Source: a virus. From it: a DNA stretch of 20,855 bases. The stretch lies in IMG/VR virus record IMGVR_UViG_3300010367_000012, positions 1 to 20,855 of that record, one strand, 5' to 3'. Position numbers and translations under genes: made by a program. This document shows positions 2,786 to 16,740 of the stretch, piece after piece. The notes under the pieces were generated by a model. That model was not told the origin of the DNA. It searched no databases and saw only the letters and a list, made by a program, of their open reading frames with translations. Numbering within the stretch: position 1 is the first letter of the stretch; each line of letters opens with the position of its first letter.

Positions 2786-2925
2786 TGCTTGAAGCGTGGA
2801 AGTCTGCTTGGGAAGAGATGTCGGATAACTTCTATGAGAATTGGCAGACGATTGTCTTCCATCTCTATACCCTCCAATACGTAATGGCTACGGGTGATCT
2901 GACCGTTTGGGAGCAAGATGTCTGA
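2785..2925 (+). CDS. Small hypothetical protein, 46 aa (not in ORF track)
   Basis: TAATG coupling; MLEAWKSAWEEMSDNFYENWQTIVFHLYTLQYVMATGDLTVWEQDV fills the gap before the HNH gene. Confidence 0.6.
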   Translation: MLEAWKSAWEEMSDNFYENWQTIVFHLYTLQYVMATGDLTVWEQDV

Positions 2926-3202
2926 TCGACATGGAATGGGCGCACAGGTTCTTCATGAGCTGTACGAACGGGACATGGGAATCTGTCAGGTATGCTTCCG
3001 CTATGCGGATATCCGAGACTGTAACGTAGACCATGTCATTCCCGCTGCTGATGGTGGGACGAGTGATATGGATAACCTTCAACTCACGCATTACTGGTGC
3101 AATACCATTAAGGCGGACAACAAGGGAAAGATTAACTTCAACGCCTATTGGTACCAGAAGCCCACAAAGCGACAGCTTCAGGCAGTTGATCGTAGGGCTT
3201 GA
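2918..3202 (+). CDS. HNH endonuclease
   Basis: RDMGICQVC...VDHVIP..DGG...DNLQLTHYWCNTIK. Confidence 0.9.
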   Translation: MSDRHGMGAQVLHELYERDMGICQVCFRYADIRDCNVDHVIPAADGGTSDMDNLQLTHYWCNTIKADNKGKINFNAYWYQKPTKRQLQAVDRRA

Positions 3203-3228
3203 CCGATGTCAGTAGGGCCTGATAGAGT
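3199..3228 (+). promoter_or_regulatory. recA promoter: TTGACC-N18-TAGAGT with internal TGTCAG-N10-TAGAGT (PafBC/RecA-NDp-like)
   Basis: Motifs read directly; near-copy at 15475-15504. Confidence 0.75.
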
Positions 3229-3247
3229 AACTTCTATCAGGCCCTAC
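3212..3247. repeat. Perfect 15-bp inverted repeat over the -10 and start region of the recA promoter
   Basis: GTAGGGCCTGATAGA-gtaact-TCTATCAGGCCCTAC. Confidence 0.9.
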
Positions 3248-3265
3248 GCTATTTTGGGAGATAGA

Positions 3266-4309
3266 TTGAACGACGAATTAAAGTCTTTTATGGCCAAGAT
3301 GAATAAGCAATTAGAGAAGGATGGGAAGCCCCTTCTATTCACAGCATCTTCTATGCCTGTGATTAAGAAGTTCACTTCTGGTCTTCTCGCACTAGACGTA
3401 GCGTTAGGCGGAGGTTGGCCCGGAAATAAGTGGGTTGAGATTTACGGTAAGGAATCCAACGGTAAGACCAGCATCATTCTGAGAACTATTGCAGCTAATC
3501 AGGCATTGAATCCTGATTTCATGACGTTCTGGGTTGCCTCTGAGTATTTCGATCCTGCGTGGGCTACACAGAATGGTGTAGATGTTTCAAAGGTAATTGT
3601 GTTTGACACTAATAACATGGAGACTGCTTACCAGATGGTAATTGATGCAGCAGCCTCACATCAATTTGATTGCCTTGTGATTGACTCCTACCCGGCTATG
3701 GCGGCGGGAGAAGAAATTGATAAGGCCATGGATCAGAACTCTATGGCACTAGGAGCTAGACGTACCGGTCAGTTCTTCCGTAAGATTGAGGGACATTATT
3801 CTCAGGACCGACCATATATTGGTTTCTTTGTTAATCAGTTACGTGATGCAATCGGGTCTTTCTCACCATATGGCACGCCGACGACAACGCCAGGAGGAAA
3901 GGCAAAGAATTACTTCTTCTACCAGCGTGTACTTATCTCCAGAGATGAATTCATTGAGGAGAAGGTGGAAGGACAGGGTAAGGTAAAGGTTGGACAGACT
4001 AACAAGTACCTGCTAGAAAAGAACAAGGCTGCGGCTCCTAAGTCTGTAGCTATGGGAGACTTCTACTTCCTGGATTCTGAAAAGGGATTCCATGCTGGTG
4101 AGTTTGATACTACAAAGGACATCATTACTATGGCTGTCCTCTTCAAGGTCATCAAGCGTGCTGGTGCCTGGTTCAGCTACACCACACTTGACGGAGAAGA
4201 GTTTAAGTGGCAGGGTAGAGATCCGATGGTGGAAGACATTCGTAGTAATCTAGACCTTAAGGAAGAAATCTTCGCTAAGACTCTAGAAATTGCTACGAAT
4301 AAGGAATAA
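3266..4309 (+). CDS. recA: RecA-like recombinase
   Basis: TSGLLALDVALGGGWP, Walker A GKESNGKT, Walker B VIDS, NQLRD, TTPGGKA, AGAWFSY. Start moved to TTG 3266 after GGAGA RBS because the track start 3206 lies inside the promoter. Confidence 0.93.
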   Translation: MNDELKSFMAKMNKQLEKDGKPLLFTASSMPVIKKFTSGLLALDVALGGGWPGNKWVEIYGKESNGKTSIILRTIAANQALNPDFMTFWVASEYFDPAWATQNGVDVSKVIVFDTNNMETAYQMVIDAAASHQFDCLVIDSYPAMAAGEEIDKAMDQNSMALGARRTGQFFRKIEGHYSQDRPYIGFFVNQLRDAIGSFSPYGTPTTTPGGKAKNYFFYQRVLISRDEFIEEKVEGQGKVKVGQTNKYLLEKNKAAAPKSVAMGDFYFLDSEKGFHAGEFDTTKDIITMAVLFKVIKRAGAWFSYTTLDGEEFKWQGRDPMVEDIRSNLDLKEEIFAKTLEIATNKE

Positions 4310-4311
4310 CT

Positions 4312-4698
4312 ATGGCTATTACTGGTGCTAAGACCATCATTGTTACAGGAAAGTACGTAAATTTCATCAGTGGCGCTGGTGAGAACGGTACAGTACAGTT
4401 CATTCCATCCATGCCCAGTCTGTCTGATGCCGCAGACAATCAGTTCTTGACAATTCCCCCGTTTGTTGCTGTACTTCCAGGGACAATCGGGGGAACCCCG
4501 AACAGTAGTGGTCCGGGTACCTTCAGCATCACGTTGCCATGTACAGACAACAACGAGTTGCACCCTGAAGGATTTACCTATACCATCATCGAACGCGTTA
4601 CCAACATGGCGAACCGCACTACTAAGGGAGTCTTGATTCCCAGCACGCTAGGTAGTACAGTGGACCTAACAGACGTACTCGCCCCGTACTTGGGATAA
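4312..4698 (+). CDS. Hypothetical beta-rich protein resembling N-terminal domains of actinophage tail proteins
   Basis: GTVQFIPS...GTFSITLPCTDN..LHPEGFTYTIIE pattern; coupled to recA. Family call is tentative. Confidence 0.55.
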   Translation: MAITGAKTIIVTGKYVNFISGAGENGTVQFIPSMPSLSDAADNQFLTIPPFVAVLPGTIGGTPNSSGPGTFSITLPCTDNNELHPEGFTYTIIERVTNMANRTTKGVLIPSTLGSTVDLTDVLAPYLG

Positions 4699-4718
4699 AT
4701 ACTACAAGGGAGACAGCA

Positions 4719-4943
4719 ATGACAATGACGACCGATGAGGCAATGAACCGTGCGCGTGTTGAGTTCGCTAAGTACCAGCTTCTTTTCCTGGAGCAGGAGC
4801 GACTGAACCCTGACCTTTCTTTTGATGAGGTTCAGGTGCTGGTTGACTATGACCACCCGATCTTTGAGGATGAGGAAGACCAGGCTAGTTATGACACGGC
4901 CGCAATGATCGTTGCTTTCGAAGTCATCATGTCTGTTCTTTAA
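4719..4943 (+). CDS. Acidic hypothetical protein
   Basis: GGAGA RBS, clean ORF. Confidence 0.7.
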   Translation: MTMTTDEAMNRARVEFAKYQLLFLEQERLNPDLSFDEVQVLVDYDHPIFEDEEDQASYDTAAMIVAFEVIMSVL

Positions 4944-4956
4944 TTAGGAGGATTAC

Positions 4957-5577
4957 ATGGAGTTCAAGCCCTGGCCTAGCATCCCTCGTATGTCGAAGGA
5001 GCAGGTTACTGTAACTGAGAAGATCGATGGCTCGAATTCAGCGGTTCGTATTCGTCCATTCAATATCGATGATGACCGTATCGATCAGGTTGATACAGTC
5101 TCTATCGATGGTGAGAAGTACACTCTGTGGGCACAGTCCCGTAAGCGTCTCCTTCAGCCTGTAAAGGAAAAGGACAACTTTGGATTTGCTCGTTGGGTCT
5201 ACGACAATGCTCCTGCACTTGTTCGTGTGCTTGGTCCTGGTGACCACTATGGCGAGTGGTGGGGAAGCGGCATTCAGCGGTCCTACGGGCTGTCTGAGAA
5301 GCGTTTCAGCCTCTTCAATGCTCCTCGTTGGTCTGAGGTTCTGAGTCCCACAGAAGCGCTCTCAGAGGTTTCTAACCTGTACATCGTTCCACTGCTCTTC
5401 AAGGGTAGGTTCTACGATCTCGACACCAAGTCTCTTCGTGATGATCTGGTGGAGAACGGCTCGAAGGTTGTCCCTGGCTTCAAGTCAGAAGGCATGGTAG
5501 TGTACCTTCGAGAGGTCAACGCGAGTTACAAGGTTCTCTTGGAGAACGACGAAATCCACAAGTGGGAGACAAAGTAG
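4957..5577 (+). CDS. RNA ligase (Rnl2-like adenylation domain)
   Basis: Motif I TEKIDGSN, QSRKR, GEWWG, FSLF, EGMVV, terminal YK. Confidence 0.85.
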   Translation: MEFKPWPSIPRMSKEQVTVTEKIDGSNSAVRIRPFNIDDDRIDQVDTVSIDGEKYTLWAQSRKRLLQPVKEKDNFGFARWVYDNAPALVRVLGPGDHYGEWWGSGIQRSYGLSEKRFSLFNAPRWSEVLSPTEALSEVSNLYIVPLLFKGRFYDLDTKSLRDDLVENGSKVVPGFKSEGMVVYLREVNASYKVLLENDEIHKWETK

Positions 5578-5635
5578 TTGCTTGTCTCGTCATCCTCTAG
5601 TAGGATGGCGTGGCTGGTCACTACTAGGAGTAAAA

Positions 5636-6031
5636 ATGACGAACATGCGTAAGGTTGCTGCGGCTACTCTGGCGGCTGTTACCTTGGGTATTACTGCAAC
5701 TGCTTGTAGCAGCGAGGCTGATACAGCGTCAAGCAATGTGTCAAAGGCTGCTGATAACTTCCAGGTCAACCGTCGAATTGTTGTGATCAACGGCATCACT
5801 GACAAGTACCTGCTTGTTATCACGGGAGCCTGTTCTATCAATACGGATGACCCTCACAAGCTTGTGACCACATGCAAGACTGGTCCTGGTCAGTACAAGA
5901 AGTTCTATGCTGGACTGGCCAACAACGTTACGTGGACTGTGGAGCAGGGTTCTTCTGTTAAGGTGAGCGGATACCACTACAAGGTGATCTTCCGTCCGTC
6001 TACTCTTGTTCCTGACATCGATTTCAACTAA
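5636..6031 (+). CDS. Phage lipoprotein
   Basis: AGGAG RBS then ATG 5636; basic N-terminus, hydrophobic helix, lipobox-like ATAC; ADNFQVNRRIVVINGITDKYLL. Confidence 0.75.
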   Translation: MTNMRKVAAATLAAVTLGITATACSSEADTASSNVSKAADNFQVNRRIVVINGITDKYLLVITGACSINTDDPHKLVTTCKTGPGQYKKFYAGLANNVTWTVEQGSSVKVSGYHYKVIFRPSTLVPDIDFN

Positions 6032-6106
6032 GATCCTCAGCCAGTACCTGAACAATGGGTACTGGCTTGAGGCAGTAGAAAATCCATTCCAATTAGGAGG
6101 CAATAA

Positions 6107-6376
6107 ATGCTTATCACTGGTGCTTACATCGCGGGCGGAATCATTTACGCGATTGGTTTCTTCACCTCTCTGTCTGACGTTCTGGACAACGGTAAGAGCC
6201 TGAAGGAGTACCGCGAGAAGTATGGGCACGACCTTGGTCTGATCGCGTGTGGTTTCTCTCGTGGTTTCGTGACCGTTGGTTGGCCTGCATTCGGTGGCAT
6301 CAAGTTTGGTGTGGGTATTGTTCGGGATGCTATCCGTCTGGTCCTTGGTAAGAAGCCGAAGGTTGTTGAGAAGTAA
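6107..6376 (+). CDS. Small membrane protein
   Basis: AGGAGG RBS; N-terminal hydrophobic segment and a second hydrophobic stretch. Confidence 0.7.
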   Translation: MLITGAYIAGGIIYAIGFFTSLSDVLDNGKSLKEYREKYGHDLGLIACGFSRGFVTVGWPAFGGIKFGVGIVRDAIRLVLGKKPKVVEK

Positions 6377-6486
6377 TGGCTTCAACTTGTCCATTATGTG
6401 ACAAGAAATTCAAAACGGATAAAGAACTCTACGCGCACATGCCTAAGTGTTCTTATCCAAAAGATAAAAGGAAAGAAAAGAAATAA
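6376..6486 (+). CDS. 36-aa C2HC zinc-finger protein (not in ORF track)
   Basis: TAATG coupling; MASTCPLCDKKFKTDKELYAHMPKCSYPKDKRKEKK; stop abuts next GTG. Confidence 0.7.
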   Translation: MASTCPLCDKKFKTDKELYAHMPKCSYPKDKRKEKK

Positions 6487-6816
6487 GTGGCTGATGTAAA
6501 AGACAGCCAGAGGCAGGAACGCCGTCTAGCCATAGCGCTAGGCGGCTCTGTCAATTCTGGTTCAGGTAATGGTTGGGTTCGTAAGGGTGACGTGAGAACG
6601 GAGGAAGAACTATTCGAATTGAAGATTACCAGTGCCAAATCCTATTCCCTTAAAGACGCAGAGCTTGAGAAGAATGCGGAACAAGCGCTGATAGATGGAC
6701 GTATTCCAGTCTTTATGGTAGAGTTCAAGACCACTGGTAACGCATGGGTAATAATGTCGAAAGATGATTACCTGACTCTTAGGGAAGAAGCAAGTATTGG
6801 TAATGAAATTACGTAG
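6487..6816 (+). CDS. Hjc-like PD-(D/E)XK Holliday junction resolvase
   Basis: QERRLA, SGSG, KGDV, FELK motif. Confidence 0.75.
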   Translation: MADVKDSQRQERRLAIALGGSVNSGSGNGWVRKGDVRTEEELFELKITSAKSYSLKDAELEKNAEQALIDGRIPVFMVEFKTTGNAWVIMSKDDYLTLREEASIGNEIT

Positions 6817-7138
6817 TGTTGCTCCTCAATGGTTTCACGATGATCCAAAGAAGACAGCCAAATGTGTGTCCTTTCCCGCTACTGCGGATTATGACCCTTG
6901 GTATGGAGAGTCGGATGATCCTGATGCTGTAGACGAGACAGAAGACGCAAAGAATATCTGCTTAGGCACGTACGATGGACGACCGTGCCCCTTAAAGGAA
7001 CTCTGCTTAGAATTCGCTATGGTCAATAACGAACGCTGGGGAGTCTGGGGCGGGATGTCACCTGATGAACGTGCGAAACTGAGAAAGGAAAAGAGAAAGA
7101 ATTGGCAACCATCAGCAGCGGCTGGGGACCTAAGCTAA
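6803..7138 (+). CDS. whiB: WhiB-family transcription factor
   Basis: Four Cys, AKNIC..CP...CLEFAM, WGVWGG turn, basic tail. Confidence 0.9.
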   Translation: MKLRSVAPQWFHDDPKKTAKCVSFPATADYDPWYGESDDPDAVDETEDAKNICLGTYDGRPCPLKELCLEFAMVNNERWGVWGGMSPDERAKLRKEKRKNWQPSAAAGDLS

Positions 7139-8103
7139 AAGGTAACCTAGCTAATTACGCCAATGCTTCTAAGGGAACCGTTCTCTTGGGAGATATTCAA
7201 GCCCATATGATTAAGGAAAATGCCAAGCCTTCCACTCGTAGGCAAGACATCGTGCACCCGTCTGAGACGTCGAAAGAAGACTGGTGTCCCCTGGCTACCT
7301 ACCATCGGATTTTGGCCTGTAGAGAGGCAAACAACCCCTATCTCAAGCCTGCTGAGACCATCGCTCCACAGCTCCTGAACATCTTCGATGAGGGACACAA
7401 CATCCACGACAAGTGGCAGCGTCGAATCTGGAAGATGGGAGATCTCTGGGGTAACTGGAAGTGTCTGAGATGTGATACCTTCGTCAGATCTGACAACCTT
7501 CCTGACAAGTGCCATATATGCGGCATGGGTGTTGAAGGAATGCAGTATCTTGAGGTACCCTTGCGCTATGACCCGCTGTTGATCGCTGGTCATGCAGATG
7601 GCGCGGTTCCAAAGCTGAATGCTCTTATCGAGATTAAGTCGGTAGGCGCTGGTACCGTTAGAATGGAAGCACCTGATATATACAAAGCGAATGTTGATGG
7701 CTCACATATCAATCTTCAAGGTTTGTGGAAGGACATCAAAGAGCCTTTCCCAAGCCATATCAGACAGGGTCAGCTATATCTAGCTCTTTGTGCTCGAATT
7801 GGATTGCCATTTGATCAAATCCTCTTTCTATATGAAAGTAAGTTTAATCAGGGTGTAAAGGAATTCCTTGTAAAGTACGACCCTGAAGTGTCAAGGGGCA
7901 TTCTATTGAATTGCTCTGATATTGTCGCTGCTCTGGATTTGGGGGGACCGCTTCCAGAGTGCCCTACTGGTACGTGTAAAGATTGCGAGAAATATGGCAC
8001 GCAGAAATCCGATTCAGAGCGGATGGTTAGAGAACACAACTCTGAGAGAAAAGCCGTCAGACGACCAACCAGTTCTCCCACCAGGATTGTCAGATCTACC
8101 TGA
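7102..8103 (+). CDS. Cas4/RecB-like PD-(D/E)XK exonuclease
   Basis: HPSE..WCP, GHNIH, GHADG, IEIKS, QGQLY, C-terminal CPTGTCKDC; internal CLRC/CHIC Zn insert. Confidence 0.8.
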   Translation: MATISSGWGPKLKGNLANYANASKGTVLLGDIQAHMIKENAKPSTRRQDIVHPSETSKEDWCPLATYHRILACREANNPYLKPAETIAPQLLNIFDEGHNIHDKWQRRIWKMGDLWGNWKCLRCDTFVRSDNLPDKCHICGMGVEGMQYLEVPLRYDPLLIAGHADGAVPKLNALIEIKSVGAGTVRMEAPDIYKANVDGSHINLQGLWKDIKEPFPSHIRQGQLYLALCARIGLPFDQILFLYESKFNQGVKEFLVKYDPEVSRGILLNCSDIVAALDLGGPLPECPTGTCKDCEKYGTQKSDSERMVREHNSERKAVRRPTSSPTRIVRST

Positions 8104-8461
8104 CGATGTACTGATGGATCTGTTGGTTGATTTCACCAACTGGACTGGCTATGCTGGTTATCAAGTTGCTTTGAATGAAATTGCCGAAAGAAAGGCCGAA
8201 CGCAGTCTTCAGCGCGTATTCGACCGATACAGTATTGTCCATAAGAAGGAGAAGACTGTAGCAGCGACTAAGGCAATGGTTCAGCAAGAGGAAGAATATA
8301 TGGAGGCAGAAGACGCAGTTGAACTAGCGTACGCGGTAACGAAACTCTCAAAATCGGAATATACCCACCTAGAGGCTGCAAGTAAGGTAGTATCCAGAGA
8401 ACTGTCTCGCCGTATTTCTAGACGTGATCTAGAAGGCCGTGTAGACAAATACGCATCGTAG
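7994..8461 (+). CDS. Helical protein, possibly a UvsY-like recombination mediator
   Basis: All-helical 155 aa with EKTVAATKAMVQQEEEYMEAE and VSRELSRR; context with RecA and a nuclease. Function inferred. Confidence 0.5.
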   Translation: MARRNPIQSGWLENTTLREKPSDDQPVLPPGLSDLPDDVLMDLLVDFTNWTGYAGYQVALNEIAERKAERSLQRVFDRYSIVHKKEKTVAATKAMVQQEEEYMEAEDAVELAYAVTKLSKSEYTHLEAASKVVSRELSRRISRRDLEGRVDKYAS

Positions 8462-8468
8462 GTGGAAA

Positions 8469-8906
8469 ATGACTGTTGTCCGTGGGCAGATTTATCAATA
8501 TAACTTAAATCCAATGGTTTTCTTCAGCATTCAGAGGGTTTATTCTGTAAATCAGATTCTCATAATGAATGTTGATACCCGTGCACAAACGTACTTTACT
8601 CAGACTAGATTGCTGAGTACCTGTACGCTTGTGGACTCTGTACCACCAAATAGACTCCACAATGGCTACCATTTCACTGGTGGAGCGGTTACGGTAAGTC
8701 TGGCTTTTGCCTTGACGACACCGTTCACCAGTGGTAGAGTTCTTGCTCACGGCACAGTCACAAAGCCCAGAGCGTTCGCCCCTACGTACTTGCAGGGGCG
8801 TACCGCTGACCATGCTAGTGTGACTAGCGCTGGACTCATTAATCCACTTGTCCTAGGAGGACACTTTGCCAGCAAAGGGCGCACGGTACAAGCATCGCTC
8901 AATTAA
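8469..8906 (+). CDS. Hypothetical protein; 3' half overlaps a highly structured region
   Basis: AGGTGG RBS; first ~60 aa look like a small beta domain. Confidence 0.5.
   Translation: MTVVRGQIYQYNLNPMVFFSIQRVYSVNQILIMNVDTRAQTYFTQTRLLSTCTLVDSVPPNRLHNGYHFTGGAVTVSLAFALTTPFTSGRVLAHGTVTKPRAFAPTYLQGRTADHASVTSAGLINPLVLGGHFASKGRTVQASLN
8629..8863 (+). ncRNA. Candidate structured RNA
   Basis: Consecutive long stems: 8675-8689/8720-8733; nested 8737-42/8832-37, 8756-62/8819-25, 8777-83/8794-8800. Confidence 0.35.
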
Positions 8907-9036
8907 GGATGTTGTGTACAAGATCGATGAGGTTGACAACAAGGCTAAGGCGGTATACCTTGTAGAAACCAACGGACGCGGCGCACGTGTTCGAGTGACA
9001 TTTACTCAGTTGAGCGACAGCTACGAAAGGGCTTAA
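8866..9036 (+). CDS. 56-aa hypothetical protein (not in ORF track)
   Basis: AGGAGG RBS then TTG; MPAKGARYKHRSIKDVVYKIDEVDNKAKAVYLVETNGRGARVRVTFTQLSDSYERA; stop is 1 nt from next GTG. Confidence 0.7.
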   Translation: MPAKGARYKHRSIKDVVYKIDEVDNKAKAVYLVETNGRGARVRVTFTQLSDSYERA

Positions 9037-9037
9037 A

Positions 9038-9394
9038 GTGCACATCACGTATTCTATGGTTCAGGAAGATCTTCCCGCTATCATCGCCACAAAGGGTGAG
9101 GATTTTCAGTATGAGGTTCATCCTGGCTCTGGTGGTACTTGCCTGTACGTGTGGGAGGGTGAGCCTGACTGTCTGATTGGCTGCTATCTGGCTGATCTGG
9201 GACTTCCTCTTGAGGCTTTCAGCAAGTTTGAGGGCAGCGGTATTGACTCCGCTTTTGGGAATGGCCATCTTGAAGAGTTCGGCTTTACCGCTGACTATGA
9301 GGCCATTAACGCCATGGAACGCATTCAGAATCTTCAGGATAATCAGTACACCTGGGGAGACGCGTACGACCGAATTTTCGATTCAGAACAGTAA
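9038..9394 (+). CDS. Hypothetical protein
   Basis: Clean ORF with CLY...PDCLIG and QNLQD...TWGDA motifs. Confidence 0.75.
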   Translation: MHITYSMVQEDLPAIIATKGEDFQYEVHPGSGGTCLYVWEGEPDCLIGCYLADLGLPLEAFSKFEGSGIDSAFGNGHLEEFGFTADYEAINAMERIQNLQDNQYTWGDAYDRIFDSEQ

Positions 9395-9402
9395 GGAAAT
9401 AA

Positions 9403-10116
9403 GTGAAGTTAACAGTGTTAGCTTCCACCTATTTTGAAGAGTTGCCGGATTCCGTTAGAAATACGGAGTTCGGCACTTTTCATGGTGGAGAGCCCCATCA
9501 GTCCGCAGATCGTCTAGCGCATTTTGCTGGACGTTCTTGTTATCAGTCCTGGAAGATGCCTAATCCTGATACTGCTACAGATGAAGGTTATCTGAATAAC
9601 ATTATCAATCAGGGCCATTTCTCAGTTCTTGAGCACGCTAGCGTTACTTTCTATGTAGAAGGCATCAGCCGTAATATGACTCACGAGTTGATTCGACACA
9701 GACACCTGAGCTATTCTGAGCTTTCTCAGCGCTACATCAATATGGAGGATGCCTATATTATGGTTCCTCCCGCTGTTGACGCACTAGAGGGCAAGGATTG
9801 GGCGGAAACTGTAGGATTAATGGGTCGTACTATGTCAGAGGCTACAGATCGCTATAAGCGAATCGTGAAGTTCTTTGAGAAGAACGATGTCAAGGGTAAG
9901 AAGGCACGTGAAGCAGCAAGAGCCTTGCTTCCAGGCGGTACAGAGACTAAGATCGTAGTCACTGGAAACCACAGAGCATGGCGTGATATGCTCCACAAGC
10001 GTTACAGCGTACATGCTGATGCAGAGATCAGAGAGTTTGCCACTTTGGTTCTTAAGGAACTGAAGAAGATTGCCCCTGGAACTTACCAGGATTTCCCAGA
10101 TAAGCCTTTTGACTAA
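9403..10116 (+). CDS. thyX: Flavin-dependent thymidylate synthase
   Basis: GHFSVLEH, ThyX motif RHRHLSYSELSQRY, AREAARALLP, NHRAW, HADAEIR. Confidence 0.96.
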   Translation: MKLTVLASTYFEELPDSVRNTEFGTFHGGEPHQSADRLAHFAGRSCYQSWKMPNPDTATDEGYLNNIINQGHFSVLEHASVTFYVEGISRNMTHELIRHRHLSYSELSQRYINMEDAYIMVPPAVDALEGKDWAETVGLMGRTMSEATDRYKRIVKFFEKNDVKGKKAREAARALLPGGTETKIVVTGNHRAWRDMLHKRYSVHADAEIREFATLVLKELKKIAPGTYQDFPDKPFD

Positions 10117-10124
10117 GGAGTTAT

Positions 10125-10484
10125 ATGTCTGAACCGAAGCTTGACTTTGAGGATGCTCGTGTAGTTGACTGTCACGATCTCGATAAGTTCGTTGCTATAC
10201 ATCTTGAAGGTTTTGATGTAGAGTGGCGCGCACTGGAGTCGTCCCGTTGGGATGGTTTCCACAATGGTAGTTTTGCGGAAGCTGACGTGGCTCCTGGTAA
10301 GGAGTCTGACTGGCTTGATGATGGTGAGGACTTCGATAGGTGGCTTCTAGGAGGATATTACTTCGATGAAGACAGTTATGGATTCTCTGGTAATGAGATT
10401 CCCAGCGTAGAGTCAATGCTTCAATGGCTTTGCGATCAAGATAAGATTCCTGCTGGTAAGTATGTGGTGAAGCTCTGGTGGTAG
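10125..10484 (+). CDS. Acidic hypothetical protein
   Basis: AAGGAG RBS; ends LCDQDKIPAGKYVVKLWW. Confidence 0.75.
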   Translation: MSEPKLDFEDARVVDCHDLDKFVAIHLEGFDVEWRALESSRWDGFHNGSFAEADVAPGKESDWLDDGEDFDRWLLGGYYFDEDSYGFSGNEIPSVESMLQWLCDQDKIPAGKYVVKLWW

Positions 10485-10705
10485 AAGAATTCATTACTGT
10501 AAGAGAGTTCATTGAGATGCTTAAGGAGTTTCCTCCCGATACTCCAATGATTCTCTCTACTGATGCAGAGGGAAATGAGCTTCGTATGGTAAATGGTGTA
10601 GGAATACGCTATGTTACTGAACTAGAGCATCGTTTCATGGACAGTATTGACGACACAGAGCTTGACGAGTACGATACATGGGTAATGACTACGGAGGTAT
10701 GGTAA
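10478..10705 (+). CDS. Hypothetical protein
   Basis: TVREFIEMLKEFPPDTPMILSTDAEGN; coupled to neighbours. Confidence 0.7.
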   Translation: MVEEFITVREFIEMLKEFPPDTPMILSTDAEGNELRMVNGVGIRYVTELEHRFMDSIDDTELDEYDTWVMTTEVW

Positions 10706-10893
10706 TGGAGCCTGTTTTCGAGCTTAAGTGGAAGTACCGTTGCCCCAAGCAGCGTGGACGTTACTCCGGTGGTACTCACAATGGTCCTCCGAAGAAGCGT
10801 AAGAAGGTAGGTAGCAAGATCAAGCCTACTCAGCAGCGTGTGATGATCCTCCAGGCCAATGGCAGGGTTGCGTGGGACTGGCAACCGGTGTAA
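10705..10893 (+). CDS. Basic hypothetical protein
   Basis: TAATG coupling, GGAGG RBS; PKKRKK. Confidence 0.65.
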   Translation: MEPVFELKWKYRCPKQRGRYSGGTHNGPPKKRKKVGSKIKPTQQRVMILQANGRVAWDWQPV

Positions 10894-10926
10894 GGTAGTA
10901 CTTGTAACTGACCGACACAACGAAGG

Positions 10927-11139
10927 ATGACAATGGGTAAGCACAAGGGACCGAAGGAAGATCCGCAGGGTACTCAGGCTGGTAAGCCTTGGGAAGAGCT
11001 GACTCCTGAAGAGAAGGGTAAGGAGTTTGACGCTTCTCACGCCCGTCCGGTAAGCTACGCTCACAAGAACTTCAAGACTGCTAAGCCTGGTGAGGGTGGT
11101 CGTGGTTTCGGATTCGGTAAGCCCAAGCACAAGCGGTAA
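10927..11139 (+). CDS. Basic, disordered hypothetical protein
   Basis: AAGGA RBS; K/G/P rich; followed by terminator. Confidence 0.7.
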   Translation: MTMGKHKGPKEDPQGTQAGKPWEELTPEEKGKEFDASHARPVSYAHKNFKTAKPGEGGRGFGFGKPKHKR

Positions 11140-11149
11140 GTAAACAATC

Positions 11150-11186
11150 GAGAGGCCCTATCTGGAAAGGTAGGGCCTTTCTTGTT
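11150..11186 (+). terminator. Intrinsic terminator
   Basis: GAGAGGCCCTATCT-ggaa-AGGTAGGGCCTTTC followed by TTGTT. Confidence 0.8.
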
Positions 11187-11198
11187 ATAGGAGGATTA

Positions 11199-11594
11199 AT
11201 GACAATTGTAGTTATCACTGGTTCCCGAGATTGGCCAATGAGCAAGGCTCATCTTATCTGGGATGCCCTCAGAAAGCTCCAGAAGGCCCATGAGGACGCC
11301 TGGCACTGGGAAGAGGCGCACATGGTACTCCATCATGGTGAATGTCCGTATGGTGGCGCTGACCTGATTGCAGCCTCTTGGGCTGACGGAGCAGACTGGG
11401 AAGTCATTTCCCATCCGCCCATTAAGCAGGCTGCATGGGCATACGCTAAGCGGAATCAGGAAATGATTGACCTGAAGCCTGACTATGTAGTAGCATGCTT
11501 CCTAGAAGGCGCGGGAAACCGTGGAACTCAGATGACATTTGATATGGCCGTAGAGGCTGGTCTTTCCGACAACATTAAGGTGGTAAGAGGTTAA
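11199..11594 (+). CDS. SLOG-superfamily (YspA-like/DUF2493) protein
   Basis: VVITGSRDW, HHGEC..GADLIA..WA, RNQEMID, RGTQMT. Confidence 0.8.
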   Translation: MTIVVITGSRDWPMSKAHLIWDALRKLQKAHEDAWHWEEAHMVLHHGECPYGGADLIAASWADGADWEVISHPPIKQAAWAYAKRNQEMIDLKPDYVVACFLEGAGNRGTQMTFDMAVEAGLSDNIKVVRG

Positions 11595-11854
11595 TGGCTA
11601 CTGTTGAAGAGCGCATTGAGAGCATGCTGATTCGCTATCTCCTTGAGGAGAAGGACATCCTTGCTGCTGAGGCTATGTTCTACGGCACCAACAGCGCTCT
11701 GGACGATGGTTGTGACACTTGCGGTTGGGGTAGCACTGAGATGACTTTCACGGTTCGATACAAGCCTGTTGCAGGCAAGCACTTTGAGTTCCTGGAGCTT
11801 GGTGGTGATCCTCTGGATATGCTTCCTGTGCTCCTTAAGTACGACGTGGAGTAA
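11594..11854 (+). CDS. Hypothetical protein
   Basis: TAATG coupling; GCDTCGWG motif. Confidence 0.75.
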   Translation: MATVEERIESMLIRYLLEEKDILAAEAMFYGTNSALDDGCDTCGWGSTEMTFTVRYKPVAGKHFEFLELGGDPLDMLPVLLKYDVE

Positions 11855-11856
11855 GA

Positions 11857-11955
11857 ATGATTTGTAAGTGCGGATTGGCGGAAGCAGTTCCCAAGTGGTA
11901 CCCATACTGCTCTGAGATCTGCTTCCGCTTTTGGAACAAAAAGAAGGGCAAGTAA
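11857..11955 (+). CDS. 32-aa Cys4 zinc-finger peptide, FCS/YacG-like (not in ORF track)
   Basis: GGAG RBS; MICKCGLAEAVPKWYPYCSEICFRFWNKKKGK; TAATG coupling to next gene. Confidence 0.65.
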   Translation: MICKCGLAEAVPKWYPYCSEICFRFWNKKKGK

Positions 11956-12221
11956 TGCCTACTATGGTTGTGCAGGAATGGGTAGAGTCTGAAGCAGGCT
12001 GGGGAACTAGCTTTGACGGATATTCTATTCATGAGACTTCAGCCGATAGAGATGAATACATTAAGGAATATTGGGATTCAATGCCTGATGCTGTTCCTAG
12101 CATCTATTCCCGCCCGTTTGGTGATCCTCGTGTCATGCATATCTGGGCAGAGGCAGCGGATGAAGTATTCAAGACTAAGAACGGTTGGCGAACATGGGAC
12201 AGGACAGTAGTCGGTGAGTGA
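11955..12221 (+). CDS. Hypothetical protein
   Basis: ATG overlapping upstream stop; WVESEAGWG..FDGYS, PSIYSRP. Confidence 0.75.
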   Translation: MPTMVVQEWVESEAGWGTSFDGYSIHETSADRDEYIKEYWDSMPDAVPSIYSRPFGDPRVMHIWAEAADEVFKTKNGWRTWDRTVVGE

Positions 12222-12708
12222 TTTAGATCCAACAAAGCCCGAAGCTCTGTTTATAGGAATCGATCAGTCCTATACAGGCTTCGGGCTGGTTGTCTTAGAT
12301 AACAATGGCCACAGCCATCAGAAGAGCCTTTTGAAATACCCTCTCAATAAATACAGAGATGAAGGAGAGCGATTAGTAAAGATCTATGACGATCTGATTA
12401 TGTACTTCGCTATCCATCAAGGATCTAAGGCTGAAATACATATCGGAATGGAGGGATATGCTTATGGAGCAAAGCTCGGAAGGGAAAAGCTCGGAGAACT
12501 CGGAGGAGTCGTCAAACTCGTCTCCAACCTCATCTTCGGAGTCACCCCAACAATTATTGCGCCTACTTCTCTCAAGCAGTTCGTCACAGGATCAGGCAAA
12601 GCTGATAAGCAGACTATGCTTAGCGAGATACAAAAGCTGGACCCCGAAATAAAGAACCACAATCTAGCTGACGCATATGGTATTGCCTATCTGCTATACT
12701 CTAGCTAG
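12214..12708 (+). CDS. ruvC: RuvC-like Holliday junction resolvase
   Basis: IGIDQSYTGFG, MEGY, PTSLKQFVTGSGKADK, NLADAYGIA. Confidence 0.88.
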   Translation: MSDLDPTKPEALFIGIDQSYTGFGLVVLDNNGHSHQKSLLKYPLNKYRDEGERLVKIYDDLIMYFAIHQGSKAEIHIGMEGYAYGAKLGREKLGELGGVVKLVSNLIFGVTPTIIAPTSLKQFVTGSGKADKQTMLSEIQKLDPEIKNHNLADAYGIAYLLYSS

Positions 12709-12734
12709 CAACTCCTCCTTTGCTATCTCCCTTT

Positions 12735-12777
12735 AAAGACCCCTTTCTTACATAATCTGTGAGAAGGGGGTCTTTTT
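12735..12777 (+). terminator. Intrinsic terminator ending the DNA-metabolism region
   Basis: AAAGACCCCTTTCTTACA...TGTGAGAAGGGGGTCTTT with T run. Confidence 0.8.
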
Positions 12778-12824
12778 GTCTGTATAATCAGTAGGAGACA
12801 TGAACTACAAACTTGGAGAAAAAT

Positions 12825-13109
12825 ATGGTAGAGAATTCGAACCACAATGAGGTTCTTCTAAAGGTGAAGTCTTCCTCTCCTGCATCATCGCTCGCAGCAG
12901 CTATTGCTAACAATGTCTACGCCAATAAGGACATCACTCTAAGAGCTATCGGTGCCGCAGCAGTAAACCAGGCTATGAAGGCACTTGCTATTGCTCAGTC
13001 CTATGTCGGTCCAAGAGGACACGTATTAGCTTGCCGTCCTGGTTTCGCCACAGTGACTATGGATGACGGAGATATCAGCGCACTCATTTTCAAAGTAATC
13101 GTTTCTTAA
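12825..13109 (+). CDS. spoVS: SpoVS-family protein (Alba-like fold)
   Basis: LKVKSSS....LAAAIA, LRAIGAAAVNQAMKALAIA, CRPGF, ISALIFKV. Confidence 0.9.
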   Translation: MVENSNHNEVLLKVKSSSPASSLAAAIANNVYANKDITLRAIGAAAVNQAMKALAIAQSYVGPRGHVLACRPGFATVTMDDGDISALIFKVIVS

Positions 13110-13126
13110 CAAGGGGAGAGTCCCGA

Positions 13127-13348
13127 ATGCCAGCACAACCAGTGGACAACAGTAGTCCACAGTCAAGAACTGCTGAGTTCTCCTCTGGAGCTACAGGATT
13201 GACAGGGCAGGGAACTGCTCATTCAGTTCAGCAACAAGCCCCACATGACTACTCACTCACTTCGGTACTCTCACCACTTCCAAGAAACAATGGAATGAGT
13301 ACCACCACATTCAATCAGAACAGAGCCCTTAGCTATTACCGTTCTTAA
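13127..13348 (+). CDS. Small disordered hypothetical protein
   Basis: GGGGAG RBS; S/T/Q rich. Confidence 0.65.
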   Translation: MPAQPVDNSSPQSRTAEFSSGATGLTGQGTAHSVQQQAPHDYSLTSVLSPLPRNNGMSTTTFNQNRALSYYRS

Positions 13349-13359
13349 AGGAGAAAACT

Positions 13360-13680
13360 ATGGCTGAAGAAATCGGCACAGGAAGTCGCCCTACTATGGG
13401 CACTGAAGCAGCACAACTTTCCCGCGTTGGTCGTCCCGAGCGTGGAAGACTACGCCCCAAGGGTGGAGCAGGTAAGAATGGGAACGCTCTAGACGGGCCT
13501 ACAGGGCACCGTAAGGCGTCCTTTGAGAAGATGGGTGCCTCCCTGCACCCTACCGCTACGCTGTACGCTCAGAACGCCGTAGAGGCCAATGAGATGTGCA
13601 AGAAGGTTCTTATGATGCCTTCCCGTAGCTCTTGGACAGATTCATTCCGCGCAAAGGCCAAGTACGGTCGTTCTATGTAA
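13360..13680 (+). CDS. Basic hypothetical protein
   Basis: AAGGAG RBS. Confidence 0.7.
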   Translation: MAEEIGTGSRPTMGTEAAQLSRVGRPERGRLRPKGGAGKNGNALDGPTGHRKASFEKMGASLHPTATLYAQNAVEANEMCKKVLMMPSRSSWTDSFRAKAKYGRSM

Positions 13681-13695
13681 GAAAGGCAATTACCA

Positions 13696-14067
13696 ATGAC
13701 ACTTCAGCACCCAGCTAATATCGCCAGATTCGAAAAAGAAACCTGGATAGAAAGATTACCGGATGCTCTGACTGATGCTATTGGCAAATTGTCCTTTATT
13801 GCATGGGCTTCAGTTGTAGTAGTAATCTGGATTCTATGGAATTCACTAAGCCCATGGCCATTCGATCCATTTCCATTCGTCTTCCTTAACCTAGCGTTCA
13901 GTGCGTTTGCGTTCTACAGTGCGCCATTGATTCTTATGAGTCAGAACAGACAGAGCGAGCACGACCGTGCAAGAGCAGAGGAGGACTTGAAGACCGATAA
14001 GCGCACATTGGCCATTCAAGAACGAATCGCAGCACATTTGGCTATTAATGTAGCCGATATAGAATAG
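13696..14067 (+). CDS. DUF1003-family membrane protein
   Basis: WILWN...FDPFPFVFLNL..S..AFYSAPLILMSQNRQ..HDR..AE.D. Confidence 0.88.
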   Translation: MTLQHPANIARFEKETWIERLPDALTDAIGKLSFIAWASVVVVIWILWNSLSPWPFDPFPFVFLNLAFSAFAFYSAPLILMSQNRQSEHDRARAEEDLKTDKRTLAIQERIAAHLAINVADIE

Positions 14068-14074
14068 AGGAATT

Positions 14075-14647
14075 ATGGCTGGTTACTCCAGCGGTGTTGC
14101 TGGCATGAACAACATGTCATATAATCCTCCCGTAGGTCAGCAAGGATCTGTGACACAGTACGGAGGAGGCGGAGGAAACCCACTTACAGGGTTCCGCTCC
14201 ATCCTTGATGCTAAGCTAGCAGCCGCAACAGGAAAGACACCTGAAGCACAATATCCTGACGGATATCTAGGTTCTGTTATTGACAGACGTCAGGATAAGC
14301 TACTTCAGACTGTACGAAATAATGCCCGTTCGTATACCCGAGGGGTACACAAAGGATCACGCATTTCCCCTACAGATTACTTCTGGCCTGATGATCTGAC
14401 TCCTTATTCTTCTCTAGAAAGAAGACTCGCAGGAGATAAGAAGAAGTATTCTGCGCAAGGTAATCCAATGGAAAGACTTGCTCATGGTGGAAAGTACCTG
14501 ACTAATGAAGAGGCTAAGCAGTTCGCTCAAGAATTGAATATTGCTGTTGATCCTCAGATGAAGGTAGTTTCTCCACAGGTCAGAGCCTTCCATGCTAAGT
14601 TCAACTTGCCTGGTTGGTCTGCTACTTCCAACGGAATGAGTGTCTAA
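14075..14647 (+). CDS. Hypothetical protein
   Basis: GAGGA RBS; PEAQYPDGYLG, RSYTRGVHKG motifs. Confidence 0.75.
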   Translation: MAGYSSGVAGMNNMSYNPPVGQQGSVTQYGGGGGNPLTGFRSILDAKLAAATGKTPEAQYPDGYLGSVIDRRQDKLLQTVRNNARSYTRGVHKGSRISPTDYFWPDDLTPYSSLERRLAGDKKKYSAQGNPMERLAHGGKYLTNEEAKQFAQELNIAVDPQMKVVSPQVRAFHAKFNLPGWSATSNGMSV

Positions 14648-14973
14648 TGGAAAAGCAGAATAGTAATTACGTTCCAGGTAAAAGAGCACAACAGAACCAA
14701 ACTATTTACAACTGGACTAAGCCTTTCCAATCAATGAATGAGCAATTAGTCCATGCTCAATTAGTAGAGAATGCCACTCTGGAAGCTGCTACTAGAAAAC
14801 CTCCTATTCCTAATATCGGTAAGATTCCTAATCGATTCGGATATAGAACTGATCCTCCAGGTATTTCAGACGTTCTGGTAGTAGATACAGCATTTGCAGC
14901 CCAGTTCGGTGATTTCTCTGGTACAGAATCAGGGTACATGGGTACTAGCTATCCATCAGTACCACAAATTTAA
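14647..14973 (+). CDS. Hypothetical protein
   Basis: TAATG coupling gives ATG 14647 (MEKQNSNY...). Confidence 0.7.
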   Translation: MEKQNSNYVPGKRAQQNQTIYNWTKPFQSMNEQLVHAQLVENATLEAATRKPPIPNIGKIPNRFGYRTDPPGISDVLVVDTAFAAQFGDFSGTESGYMGTSYPSVPQI

Positions 14974-14982
14974 GGAATTAAT

Positions 14983-15156
14983 ATGGCAGCAAAAAGAGCT
15001 GTACCAGCAACGGCTAGTCGTTCTACCGATAAGCGTAAAGTTGGTACTGCAAAGAATCCCAAGAAAGTAGCAGCCCCATCAGCCGCAGCTTATAAGCCAG
15101 TAAAGAAAGTACAAGTGGTGAAGAAGTCTGCTGGAAGACCAAAGAAGGCACAATAA
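14983..15156 (+). CDS. 57-aa Lys/Ala/Pro-rich histone-H1-like protein with AT-hook-like GRPKK (not in ORF track)
   Basis: AAGGA RBS; MAAKRAVPATASRSTDKRKVGTAKNPKKVAAPSAAAYKPVKKVQVVKKSAGRPKKAQ. Confidence 0.75.
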   Translation: MAAKRAVPATASRSTDKRKVGTAKNPKKVAAPSAAAYKPVKKVQVVKKSAGRPKKAQ

Positions 15157-15157
15157 T

Positions 15158-15442
15158 ATGGCATATCCAAGATTAAGATCCATGAATGCCTCTCTGAATG
15201 AGGGAGCTACCGATGGACGTTATAAGAAGATCCGCCCTGACACTGAGTGTGCGGACACAGATGACAAAGTACAGAACCTAACGTACGATACTCGTGAGTC
15301 TCTGAGCCTTCCGTACTACGGAGTTGGTATGGCTCGTGAGATGCGCGTACCTGCTAGACTGGAAACGGTTACTACCCCTGATTTCTACAAGAATAAGCTT
15401 GAAAGACTGGAAGATTCTGGTGTTCTAGGCCAGACTTGGTAA
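15158..15442 (+). CDS. Hypothetical protein
   Basis: Starts 1 nt after previous stop; RSMNASLNEGATDGRYKKIRPDTE. Confidence 0.7.
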   Translation: MAYPRLRSMNASLNEGATDGRYKKIRPDTECADTDDKVQNLTYDTRESLSLPYYGVGMAREMRVPARLETVTTPDFYKNKLERLEDSGVLGQTW

Positions 15443-15462
15443 CACATTTTCCACTTTGCACC

Positions 15463-15504
15463 ACAGCCCCTGAGTTGACAGATGTCAGTCAGGGGCTGTA
15501 GTCT
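15463..15504 (+). promoter_or_regulatory. Promoter TTGACA-N18-TAGTCT with TGTCAG-N10-TAGTCT, inside an inverted repeat
   Basis: ACAGCCCCTGA-g-TTGACA-ga-TGTCAG-TCAGGGGCTGT; near-copy of the recA promoter. Confidence 0.78.
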
Positions 15505-15578
15505 TGAGCCTGTTGTTACGAGATCGGGACATTCCTGAACTCAGCGACAGTCCTTATTGTCTAGAGATTGGACTAACC

Positions 15579-16058
15579 ATGTCCAGCACTATTAAGCGCG
15601 CAGCAGCTATAGCTACTACGGTTTCTGCGCTTGTTATAAGTGGAATGGCTACAGCCTCTCATGCGGCTGCCAGCACAACCACTCTAGGGTCTAAGGCTCT
15701 AGGAATCGCCAAGAATCAGTTGGGTAAGCCTTACCTTTGGGGTGCGGCTGGTCCTAGCAAGTTTGACTGCTCAGGTCTTACGAAGTATTCTTTCAGCAAA
15801 ATTGGGAAGTCAATTCCCCGTGTTGCCCAGGATCAATACAATAAGAGCCACCACATCAGCAGCGCAAGCAGACGACTTGGCGATTTGATCTTTTTTGGGA
15901 ATAGTAGCCGCAGTATTGTTCATGTGGGAATTTATGCAGGTAACGGAAACATGATTGATGCGGACTCGGGAAGCTACTACGGCCACCGAGTAACCAAGGA
16001 GCCTGTAAAGGGTTGGTTCTCCCAGCACTACAAGGTTTACTACGGTCGATTCGCGTAA
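15579..16058 (+). CDS. Secreted NlpC/P60 peptidoglycan endopeptidase
   Basis: Signal peptide from ATG 15579; GKPYLWGAAGPSKFDCSGL, PRVAQDQ, GDLIFF, HVGIYAGNG. Confidence 0.93.
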   Translation: MSSTIKRAAAIATTVSALVISGMATASHAAASTTTLGSKALGIAKNQLGKPYLWGAAGPSKFDCSGLTKYSFSKIGKSIPRVAQDQYNKSHHISSASRRLGDLIFFGNSSRSIVHVGIYAGNGNMIDADSGSYYGHRVTKEPVKGWFSQHYKVYYGRFA

Positions 16059-16658
<600 letters not shown>

Positions 16659-16660
16659 AG

Positions 16661-16695
16661 AGAAGGGTCCTCACTTTACGTGAGGGCCTTTTTCT
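16661..16695 (+). terminator. Intrinsic terminator closing the nlpC-rpf operon
   Basis: AAGGGTCCTCAC-tttac-GTGAGGGCCTTT with T run. Confidence 0.85.
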
Positions 16696-16740
16696 GTTAA
16701 GATGAGTTGTCTAAGAAACGAAATACAAAAGGACCACTAC

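Follow-up and report, generated by a model that had tools for sequence, protein, structure and literature searches.

Promoters of the Streptomyces HrdB/sigma-70 type follow the consensus TTGACN - 16 to 18 nucleotides (nt) - TAGAPuT. In compact phage genomes, a terminator may stand back-to-back with the promoter of the next gene, and phage genes that are under LexA control carry SOS boxes on their promoters. The PafBC-dependent promoters of Actinobacteria, also called RecA-NDp or recA P1-type promoters, are read by "sigma adaptation" (PMC8635444; review PMC8223512). Their consensus is tGTCgg(N10)tA(N3)T, in which the GTC triplet is read by PafB, and they have no -35, sigma region 4 being held by PafC (PMC8635444). 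PafBC is activated by single-stranded DNA (PMC8635444, PMC11804915). Here we analyse two promoter sites, one upstream of recA and one upstream of nlpC-rpf, located in the first 20,855 nt (the window) of the 112,476-nt phage record IMGVR_UViG_3300010367_000012 of IMG/VR, a genome with a G+C content of 47.7%. In our reading, to which we assign a probability of roughly 0.6, each site would be a composite intergenic cassette in which a promoter is interlocked with an RNA hairpin. The recA promoter would in addition be a hybrid, combining a -35 at 17-18 nt with a host-type -26 box of PafBC (RecA-NDp) geometry.

The nearest isolates are the 112-116-kb Streptomyces phages BRock, Alone3, GiJojo, LuckySocke and pSt2308, whose RecA is about 56% identical to that of the window's phage (G000). 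Uncultured relatives were found via RecA; the complete genomes G001-G005 were used, and the fragments are L005, L008 and L013. The recA promoter was compared in 14 phages, anchored on the -10, and the recA hairpin was analysed in a 12-phage alignment. The nlpC box was scored in ten genomes (G000-G005, BRock, Alone3, GiJojo and pSt2308), and the nlpC hairpin in eight phages. True nlpC orthologues were located through the relatives' genomes, as an NlpC search of viral contigs returned unrelated prophage hydrolases that are not orthologues. G003 and G004 have a whole-genome G+C content of 43-44%, versus 48% in the window's clade.

An earlier note on this DNA described two near-copy 30-mers, and both are indeed there, TTGACCGATGTCAG...TAGAGT at 3199-3228 and TTGACAGATGTCAG...TAGTCT at 15475-15504, on the + strand like all window features described below. 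The longer reading frames of the window are nearly all on this strand, and the genes on either side of both sites are co-directional. Each site is intergenic and has TTGAC, an 18-nt spacer, TAGnnT, and TGTCAG placed 10 nt before the -10. Both the window and the entire 112,476-nt genome contain exactly two copies of the core TTGACNGATGTCAG. Allowing up to two mismatches yields 4 matches against 0.47 expected, a number reached in 0 of 100 shuffles, and the 9-mer GATGTCAGT is found on the + strand at these two sites only. A copy of the core with one mismatch at 14280 lies within an open reading frame (ORF), without a -10, and was read as chance. The PafBC-style pattern TGTCRG-N10-TANNNT gave 2 matches in the window against 0.39 expected; since 7 of 100 shuffles reached this count, the pattern alone is only weakly beyond chance. 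As the note had remarked, other TGTCRG words lack the spaced -10: two of the eight on the + strand have it, where 0.14 are expected. The downstream genes are also those it named, encoding a RecA/UvsX-like recombinase, an NlpC/P60 protein and an Rpf-type transglycosylase with LysM.

Comparison with the orthologues indicates that the two near-copies are probably genuine promoters, for all orthologues keep the -35 and the -10 hexamer while the neighbours of these hexamers vary or covary. TTGACN and TAnnnT hexamers 16-18 nt apart, as in sigma-A/HrdB promoters, are present and kept in the orthologues, so that hexamers and spacing fit the HrdB/sigma-70 type at both sites and throughout the family. 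In contrast to promoters of this type, the phage adds a conserved -26 box at recA, and each of the two promoters overlaps a structured RNA.

The recA promoter consists of the -35 TTGACC (3199-3204), 18 nt from the -10, a PafBC/RecA-NDp-like TGTCAGT box at about -26 (3207-3213), 10 nt before the -10, and the extended -10 TGA-TAGAGT (3220-3228), in which TAGA is almost invariant despite its position in a stem. It precedes a GGGAG ribosome-binding site and the TTG start, at 3266, of the RecA/UvsX-like recombinase gene (3256-4309 with the ribosome-binding site, gene 3266-4309; Pfam RecA, E = 2e-38; phrog_97), a start that aligns with those of the relatives. Anchored on the -10, the consensus of the 14 phages is T.GAC.aTGtCAGTagGG.CtG.TAGa.T, and its best-conserved upstream element is the TGTCAGT box. 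The box reads TGTCAGT in 11 of the 14, including BRock, Alone3, LuckySocke, GiJojo and pSt2308, and its distance to the -10 is 10 nt in all 14. Within its GTC core, G and C are kept in 14/14 phages and T in 11/14, the exceptions being G003, G004 and L008, which read TGACAG or TGACGT. The -35 is variable (TTGACG, TTGACC, TAGACA or TGGACA) around a GAC that is invariant in 14/14, and the spacer is 17 nt in the orthologues. Positions immediately 5' of this -35 are almost fully variable, which argues for selection on the box. A weak -35 (TAGACA, TGGACA) is frequent among the phages with GTC, and the three with GAC all have TTGACG; a strong TTGACG where the T of GTC is missing fits compensation.

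For comparison with host promoters, we searched for TTGTCAGTGGC-N6-TAGnnT, the form of the Streptomyces recA promoter. This form matches at least 120 loci, almost all in Streptomyces; of 80 loci, at least 22 have a recA homologue 70-215 nt downstream of it. The phage recA box agrees with the promoter thus found before host recA: phage and host boxes share 8 of 9 bases (TTGTCAGTG), and that of GiJojo (TGTCAGTGG) matches through GG. GAC occurs at the -35 position in 1 of 121 host-type sites. In the window, tGTCRg with its GTC core lies 10 nt before TAnnnT at 3207-3228 and 15483-15504, as in PafBC promoters. However, a canonical -35 is present 18 nt from the -10 at both sites (TTGACC and TTGACA), and for this reason the recA promoter was not filed as a plain member of the PafBC class. 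It shares with that class the TGTCAG(T) box, the GTC core 10 nt before TAnnnT and the gene served, recA, but differs in being carried by a phage genome, in its spaced -35 and in a -10 that lies within a hairpin arm, and its control by PafBC is putative. A search of the phage genome for a WYL/PafBC-like regulator found none. On the evidence of box and spacing, we give even odds that host PafBC uses the TGTCAGT box to boost phage recA.

The -10 of recA sits in the 5' arm of a predicted 16-bp RNA hairpin (3212-3247) followed by GCTATTTTG (3212-3256 in all), which is terminator-like for transcripts from upstream. The order at the site is TGTCA, at once the stem, then GCTATTTT. In a scan of the window this stem is one of the two longest of terminator type, behind an 18-pair stem at 12735. 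Compensatory changes affect 7 of its 16 predicted pairs in the alignment, with several G.U wobbles, whereas the four pairs made by TAGA almost never change. Thus these bases are constrained as sequence too, as a -10 should be. Between the stem and its U-tract there is an offset of 4 nt (GCUAUUUU). For the 5' leader of the window's phage, a pairing of UCUAUC with GAUAGA around the recA start was rejected, as the relatives do not keep it.

The nlpC-rpf promoter consists of the -35 TTGACA (15475-15480), invariant in all orthologues, a TGTCAG box (15483-15488) 10 nt before the -10, and the -10 TAGTCT (15499-15504), which is TAGTCT, TATGCT or TATCGT in the orthologues. Here it is the -35 that is enclosed in an RNA hairpin, CAGCCCCTGAG-TTGAC-AGAT-GTCAG-TCAGGGGCTG (15464-15498), in whose apical stem the box pairs, as the 3' strand, with TTGAC. 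The folding energy is -28.2 kcal/mol (z = -3.6). Of the 8 phages, 7 have an equivalent -35 hairpin (z from -3.6 to -6.8) whose arms differ in sequence, for instance AGGGCTCCAG/CTGGGGCCCT in G004, GGCCTCAG/CTGAGGCC in BRock and CACTCCCTG/CGGGGAGTG in pSt2308. TTGACA lies in the loop in the BRock type and in the stem in the window's clade; its invariance in loop and stem alike marks it as a real -35. The stem is followed by UAGUCUUGAG, a weak U-tract.

The box at nlpC behaves differently from the one at recA. It is found at N10 in 4 of the 10 genomes, all of one clade, as TGTCAG in G000, TGTCGG in G001 and G002 and AGTCAG in G005. The same position reads TATCTG in G003, AATCGG in G004 and AGGTTC in BRock, and in Alone3, GiJojo and pSt2308 GTC is one nucleotide closer to the -10, within the stem. 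The A-to-G variant of the window's clade keeps a U.G wobble with the TTGAC of the -35, and the T-to-A variant falls in the loop. As TGTCA and TGACA are reverse complements of each other, a tight hairpin over TTGAC puts GTCA(A/G) about 10 nt before the -10, and the predicted pairing is by itself enough to account for the conservation of GTCAG at nlpC. The likeness between the two cores, as between ATGTCAGTCAGGGCTGGTAGAGT at recA of L013 and ATGTCAGTCAGGGGCTGTAGTCT at nlpC, includes stem bases that are free to vary, and the pairing partners of the shared bases lie downstream of them at recA and upstream at nlpC. The nlpC core therefore looks like a copy, or gene conversion, of the recA core in an ancestor of the window's clade, which would make the two recent twins.

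We propose that at each site a sigma-A/HrdB-type promoter, T(T/A)GACN - 17 or 18 nt - TAGnnT, is interlocked with a hairpin whose full form would arise only in transcripts arriving from the upstream co-directional genes. The G.U wobbles make sense only in sense-strand RNA, which argues that the hairpins act on such transcripts. A transcript started about 7 nt after either -10 would not hold the full hairpin. The hairpins would probably stop or trim incoming transcripts, so that recA and nlpC-rpf run from their own promoters. Both sites have the stable, GC-rich and covarying hairpin of an intrinsic terminator, here closing a co-directional block, with a T-rich stretch after it at recA, as in known terminator-promoter junctions of compact phage genomes. 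Unlike in those junctions, the promoter hexamers form part of the stem or loop and do not follow it, and the U-tracts are offset or weak.

Several points weigh against this proposal. In the clear terminators of this phage, at 11150, 12735, 16663 and 18629, the stem runs straight into a U-rich stretch (UUUUUG, UUUGUCUUUUU, UUUUUCUG or UUGUU), and the U-tracts of the cassette hairpins are weaker than these. We infer both transcription start about 7 nt beyond each -10 and termination at the hairpins, the latter being counted as such because of the poorer U-tracts. As to the hybrid nature of the recA promoter, a good -35, missing from host PafBC promoters (PMC8635444), is present at both sites of the window, so that a PafBC box may be unnecessary. 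The low-GC clade (G003, G004 and L008) has GAC in place of GTC at recA, the correlations between box and -35 rest on few independent lineages, and the presence of PafBC is assumed for the host of this uncultured phage.

The alternative that survives best, which we consider possible though clearly second to the composite cassette, is that both sites are plain housekeeping promoters without PafBC input, the TGTCAGT of recA being kept by a phage factor, by a spacer or DNA-shape constraint, or as an RNA signal beside the hairpin. The good -35 and the TAGnnT -10 (TAGAGT, TAGAAT), close to TAGAPuT, agree with it. Moreover, the low-GC clade manages without the T of GTC, the other TGTCRG-N10-TAnnnT matches of this genome are coding, and look-alikes of the box arise easily, TGTCA being the reverse complement of the -35 core. 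However, this explanation leaves aside that the recA box surpasses the -35 in conservation and stands at a fixed distance from the -10 in 14/14 phages, that it is close to the box of host recA promoters and that it recurs before ssb without a -35 (see below). A phage-specific factor would also be expected at many more than two or three sites per genome.

The earlier note placed recA and nlpC-rpf in one PafBC-linked regulon, which in its full form would make both promoters PafBC-dependent and switch on recombinase and NlpC-Rpf together through the host sensor of single-stranded DNA during replication. The match of both sites to tGTCRg-N10-TAnnnT and the near-identity of their cores are in its favour. 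So is the fact that the nlpC variants of the window's clade (TGTCAG, TGTCGG, AGTCAG) differ only at degenerate positions of the PafBC consensus (PMC8635444). Yet these variants equally keep the hairpin, one changing U-A to U.G and the other falling in the loop. In addition, the nlpC box is missing at N10 in G003, G004, BRock, Alone3, GiJojo and pSt2308 even though promoter, hairpin and genes are kept, and the nlpC -35 is an invariant TTGACA, a hexamer that PafBC promoters do without. We therefore judge this regulon unlikely. The recA part of the claim remains plausible; the nlpC part is doubtful, its box being restricted to one clade and explained by pairing. As the box is absent at nlpC in the low-GC clade and in the four BRock-type phages, a regulon shared by recA and nlpC-rpf would be clade-specific at best, and a single damage-linked regulon is not established. 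The nlpC-rpf promoter appears canonical, and PafBC control of it, which its sequence does not call for, seems to us rather improbable.

The note's other suggestion, that the palindrome TGACA-N2-TGTCA binds a phage regulator, fares badly. Taken as TGAC(A)-N-(T)GTCA, an operator of a dimeric phage regulator such as a repressor or a WhiB partner, it draws on a perfect TGACA-GA-TGTCA at 15476-15487, on GACA-N-TGTC in several recA orthologues and on the annotation of WhiB-family and helix-turn-helix genes in the syntenic region of GiJojo. But the spacing of the arms differs by one nucleotide, GAC-N3-GTC versus GAC-N4-GTC, and close relatives do not preserve the symmetry: at nlpC it is lost in G001 and G002 (TGTCGG), it is lost in the TTGACG forms, and G003 and L008 have the direct repeat TTGACGTTGAC instead. 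The half-sites are 6-7 bp apart, which is too near for the usual helix-turn-helix dimer, and the wobble substitution indicates RNA pairing. We regard an operator as very improbable. Least probable of all is that the sites are terminators or RNA-processing hairpins only, with accidental promoter-like hexamers: the hairpins are strong and covarying, and sigma-70-like matches in the window are as frequent as in shuffled sequence (26 found, 26 expected), but the hexamers are conserved where stem or loop is free to change (TAGA at recA, TTGACA at nlpC), and the recA -35 is conserved although it lies outside the hairpin.

The box that supports the hybrid promoter at recA was also found before ssb. 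Intergenic TGTCAGT-N10-TA(G/A)A(G/A)T stands directly before this gene in Alone3 (OR725492.1, 75058-75079), GiJojo (74047-74068) and BRock (42876-42897, - strand). In Alone3 (TGTCAGTCCGATAGTGTAGAGT) and GiJojo (TGTCAGTATGATGGTGTAGAGT), where it reads TGTCAGT-N10-TAGAGT, there is no -35 at all, as in host PafBC promoters. The BRock promoter is TTGACC-TTGTCAGTG-N8-TAAGAT. Box and -10 are conserved among these ssb promoters, and the 10 nt between them are variable. In the window's family, the match near ssb (108715) lies within coding sequence. The gene 3' of ssb in Alone3 encodes DNA polymerase I. In BRock-type phages the same PafBC input could serve ssb and, given co-transcription, the polymerase gene beside it.

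Searched for the pattern, four of the five isolates showed 4-5 sense-strand matches each and BRock showed 2, whereas controls gave 0-2. Across six related genomes TGTCRG-N10-TAnnnT has 30 matches at N10 versus about 10 at other spacings. This excess consists mostly of orthologous coding copies (terminase-region 62780, tail-region 93156, helicase 104992 and the pre-ssb gene at 108715) and was not counted as a genome-wide regulon; the Alone3 matches at 21214 and 59927 are likewise coding sequence. Nor was the arrangement found in the mycobacteriophages Kumao and Bask21, where recA abuts or overlaps the upstream gene without a promoter of its own. We also observed TGTCAG-N10-TA(G/A)(A/G)(G/C)T in the last ~25 helicase codons, about 60 nt before the next gene, in 7/7 genomes, which cover every clade (104992-105013 in the window's phage, 70569-70590 in Alone3). 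It encodes (V/M)-S-x-x-x-G, always with TCA and GGT out of the synonymous codons. The coding sequence may hide a promoter here, although this is inseparable from coding constraint.

An extension of these findings, which we put forward tentatively, is that lytic phages of the BRock type wire recA, ssb (with DNA polymerase I) and perhaps the gam-like gene behind the helicase to PafBC, the window's clade adding the putatively secreted NlpC-Rpf. Single-stranded DNA of early infection would then time expression, and the hybrid -35/-26 arrangement would give basal and boosted levels. As with LexA-controlled phage genes, the phage would rely on a DNA-damage regulator of its host to time its genes; here, however, a sensor of single-stranded DNA would activate them, where LexA represses. 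If the boxes of recA, and of ssb, are read by PafBC, a lytic phage times its DNA-metabolism genes through the LexA-independent sensor of its host. It would also follow that the presence of a -35 does not preclude a PafBC box, a point relevant to the competition of sigma adaptation with normal -35 recognition on a single promoter. Searching the literature turned up no report of phage promoters with PafBC-type boxes. The idea is directly testable because the close isolates BRock, Alone3 and GiJojo grow on laboratory Streptomyces. Regardless of PafBC, promoter hexamers placed inside covarying RNA hairpins would be a compact insulator design, relevant to the annotation of these phages.

Other features lie around the two cassettes. 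Upstream of recA is an HNH endonuclease gene (2918-3202; Pfam HNH, E = 2.5e-10) whose TGA stop overlaps the recA -35. It is present in this genome only, other genes being found upstream of recA in the relatives. At this overlap, the window has TTGACC and one extra nucleotide where the closest relative has TAGACA. HNH genes are inserted beside both cassettes in different phages; in GiJojo (L219, 13430-13942) one lies between the nlpC promoter and nlpC. In G003 and G004 the T of the GTC core is lost at recA and the box is absent at nlpC, and a different host or regulation may be involved.

Two further promoter-like sites of the window were noted. At 12735-12788, an 18-bp terminator hairpin with its T-tract is followed at once by TATAAT, forming a terminator/promoter junction before the gene at 12813. 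At 8712-8740, TTGACG - 17 nt - TGG-TAGAGT has the same form as the recA promoter of the relatives and lies inside the nominal ORF 8469-8906.

Downstream of the nlpC promoter, the NlpC/P60 gene (15579-16058), whose product is putatively secreted, and the gene of the Rpf-type transglycosylase with LysM (16086-16658) are closed by a hairpin and T-tract terminator 3' of the Rpf gene (~16663-16696). A conserved ~70-nt leader (15505-15578) containing GTCC-TTGTC-GGAC-ATGTCC blocks precedes them. A search of the window against Rfam gave no family match; the leader is thus not a known riboswitch. Its blocks (15505-15590) are kept as far as Alone3 and pSt2308, as GTCC(C/T)T(G/A)TTGTC, GA(T/A)TGGAC and ATGTCC. 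The GGAC of the leader may pair with either the upstream GTCC or, across the start codon, the GTCC at codon 2, and could form a translational switch.

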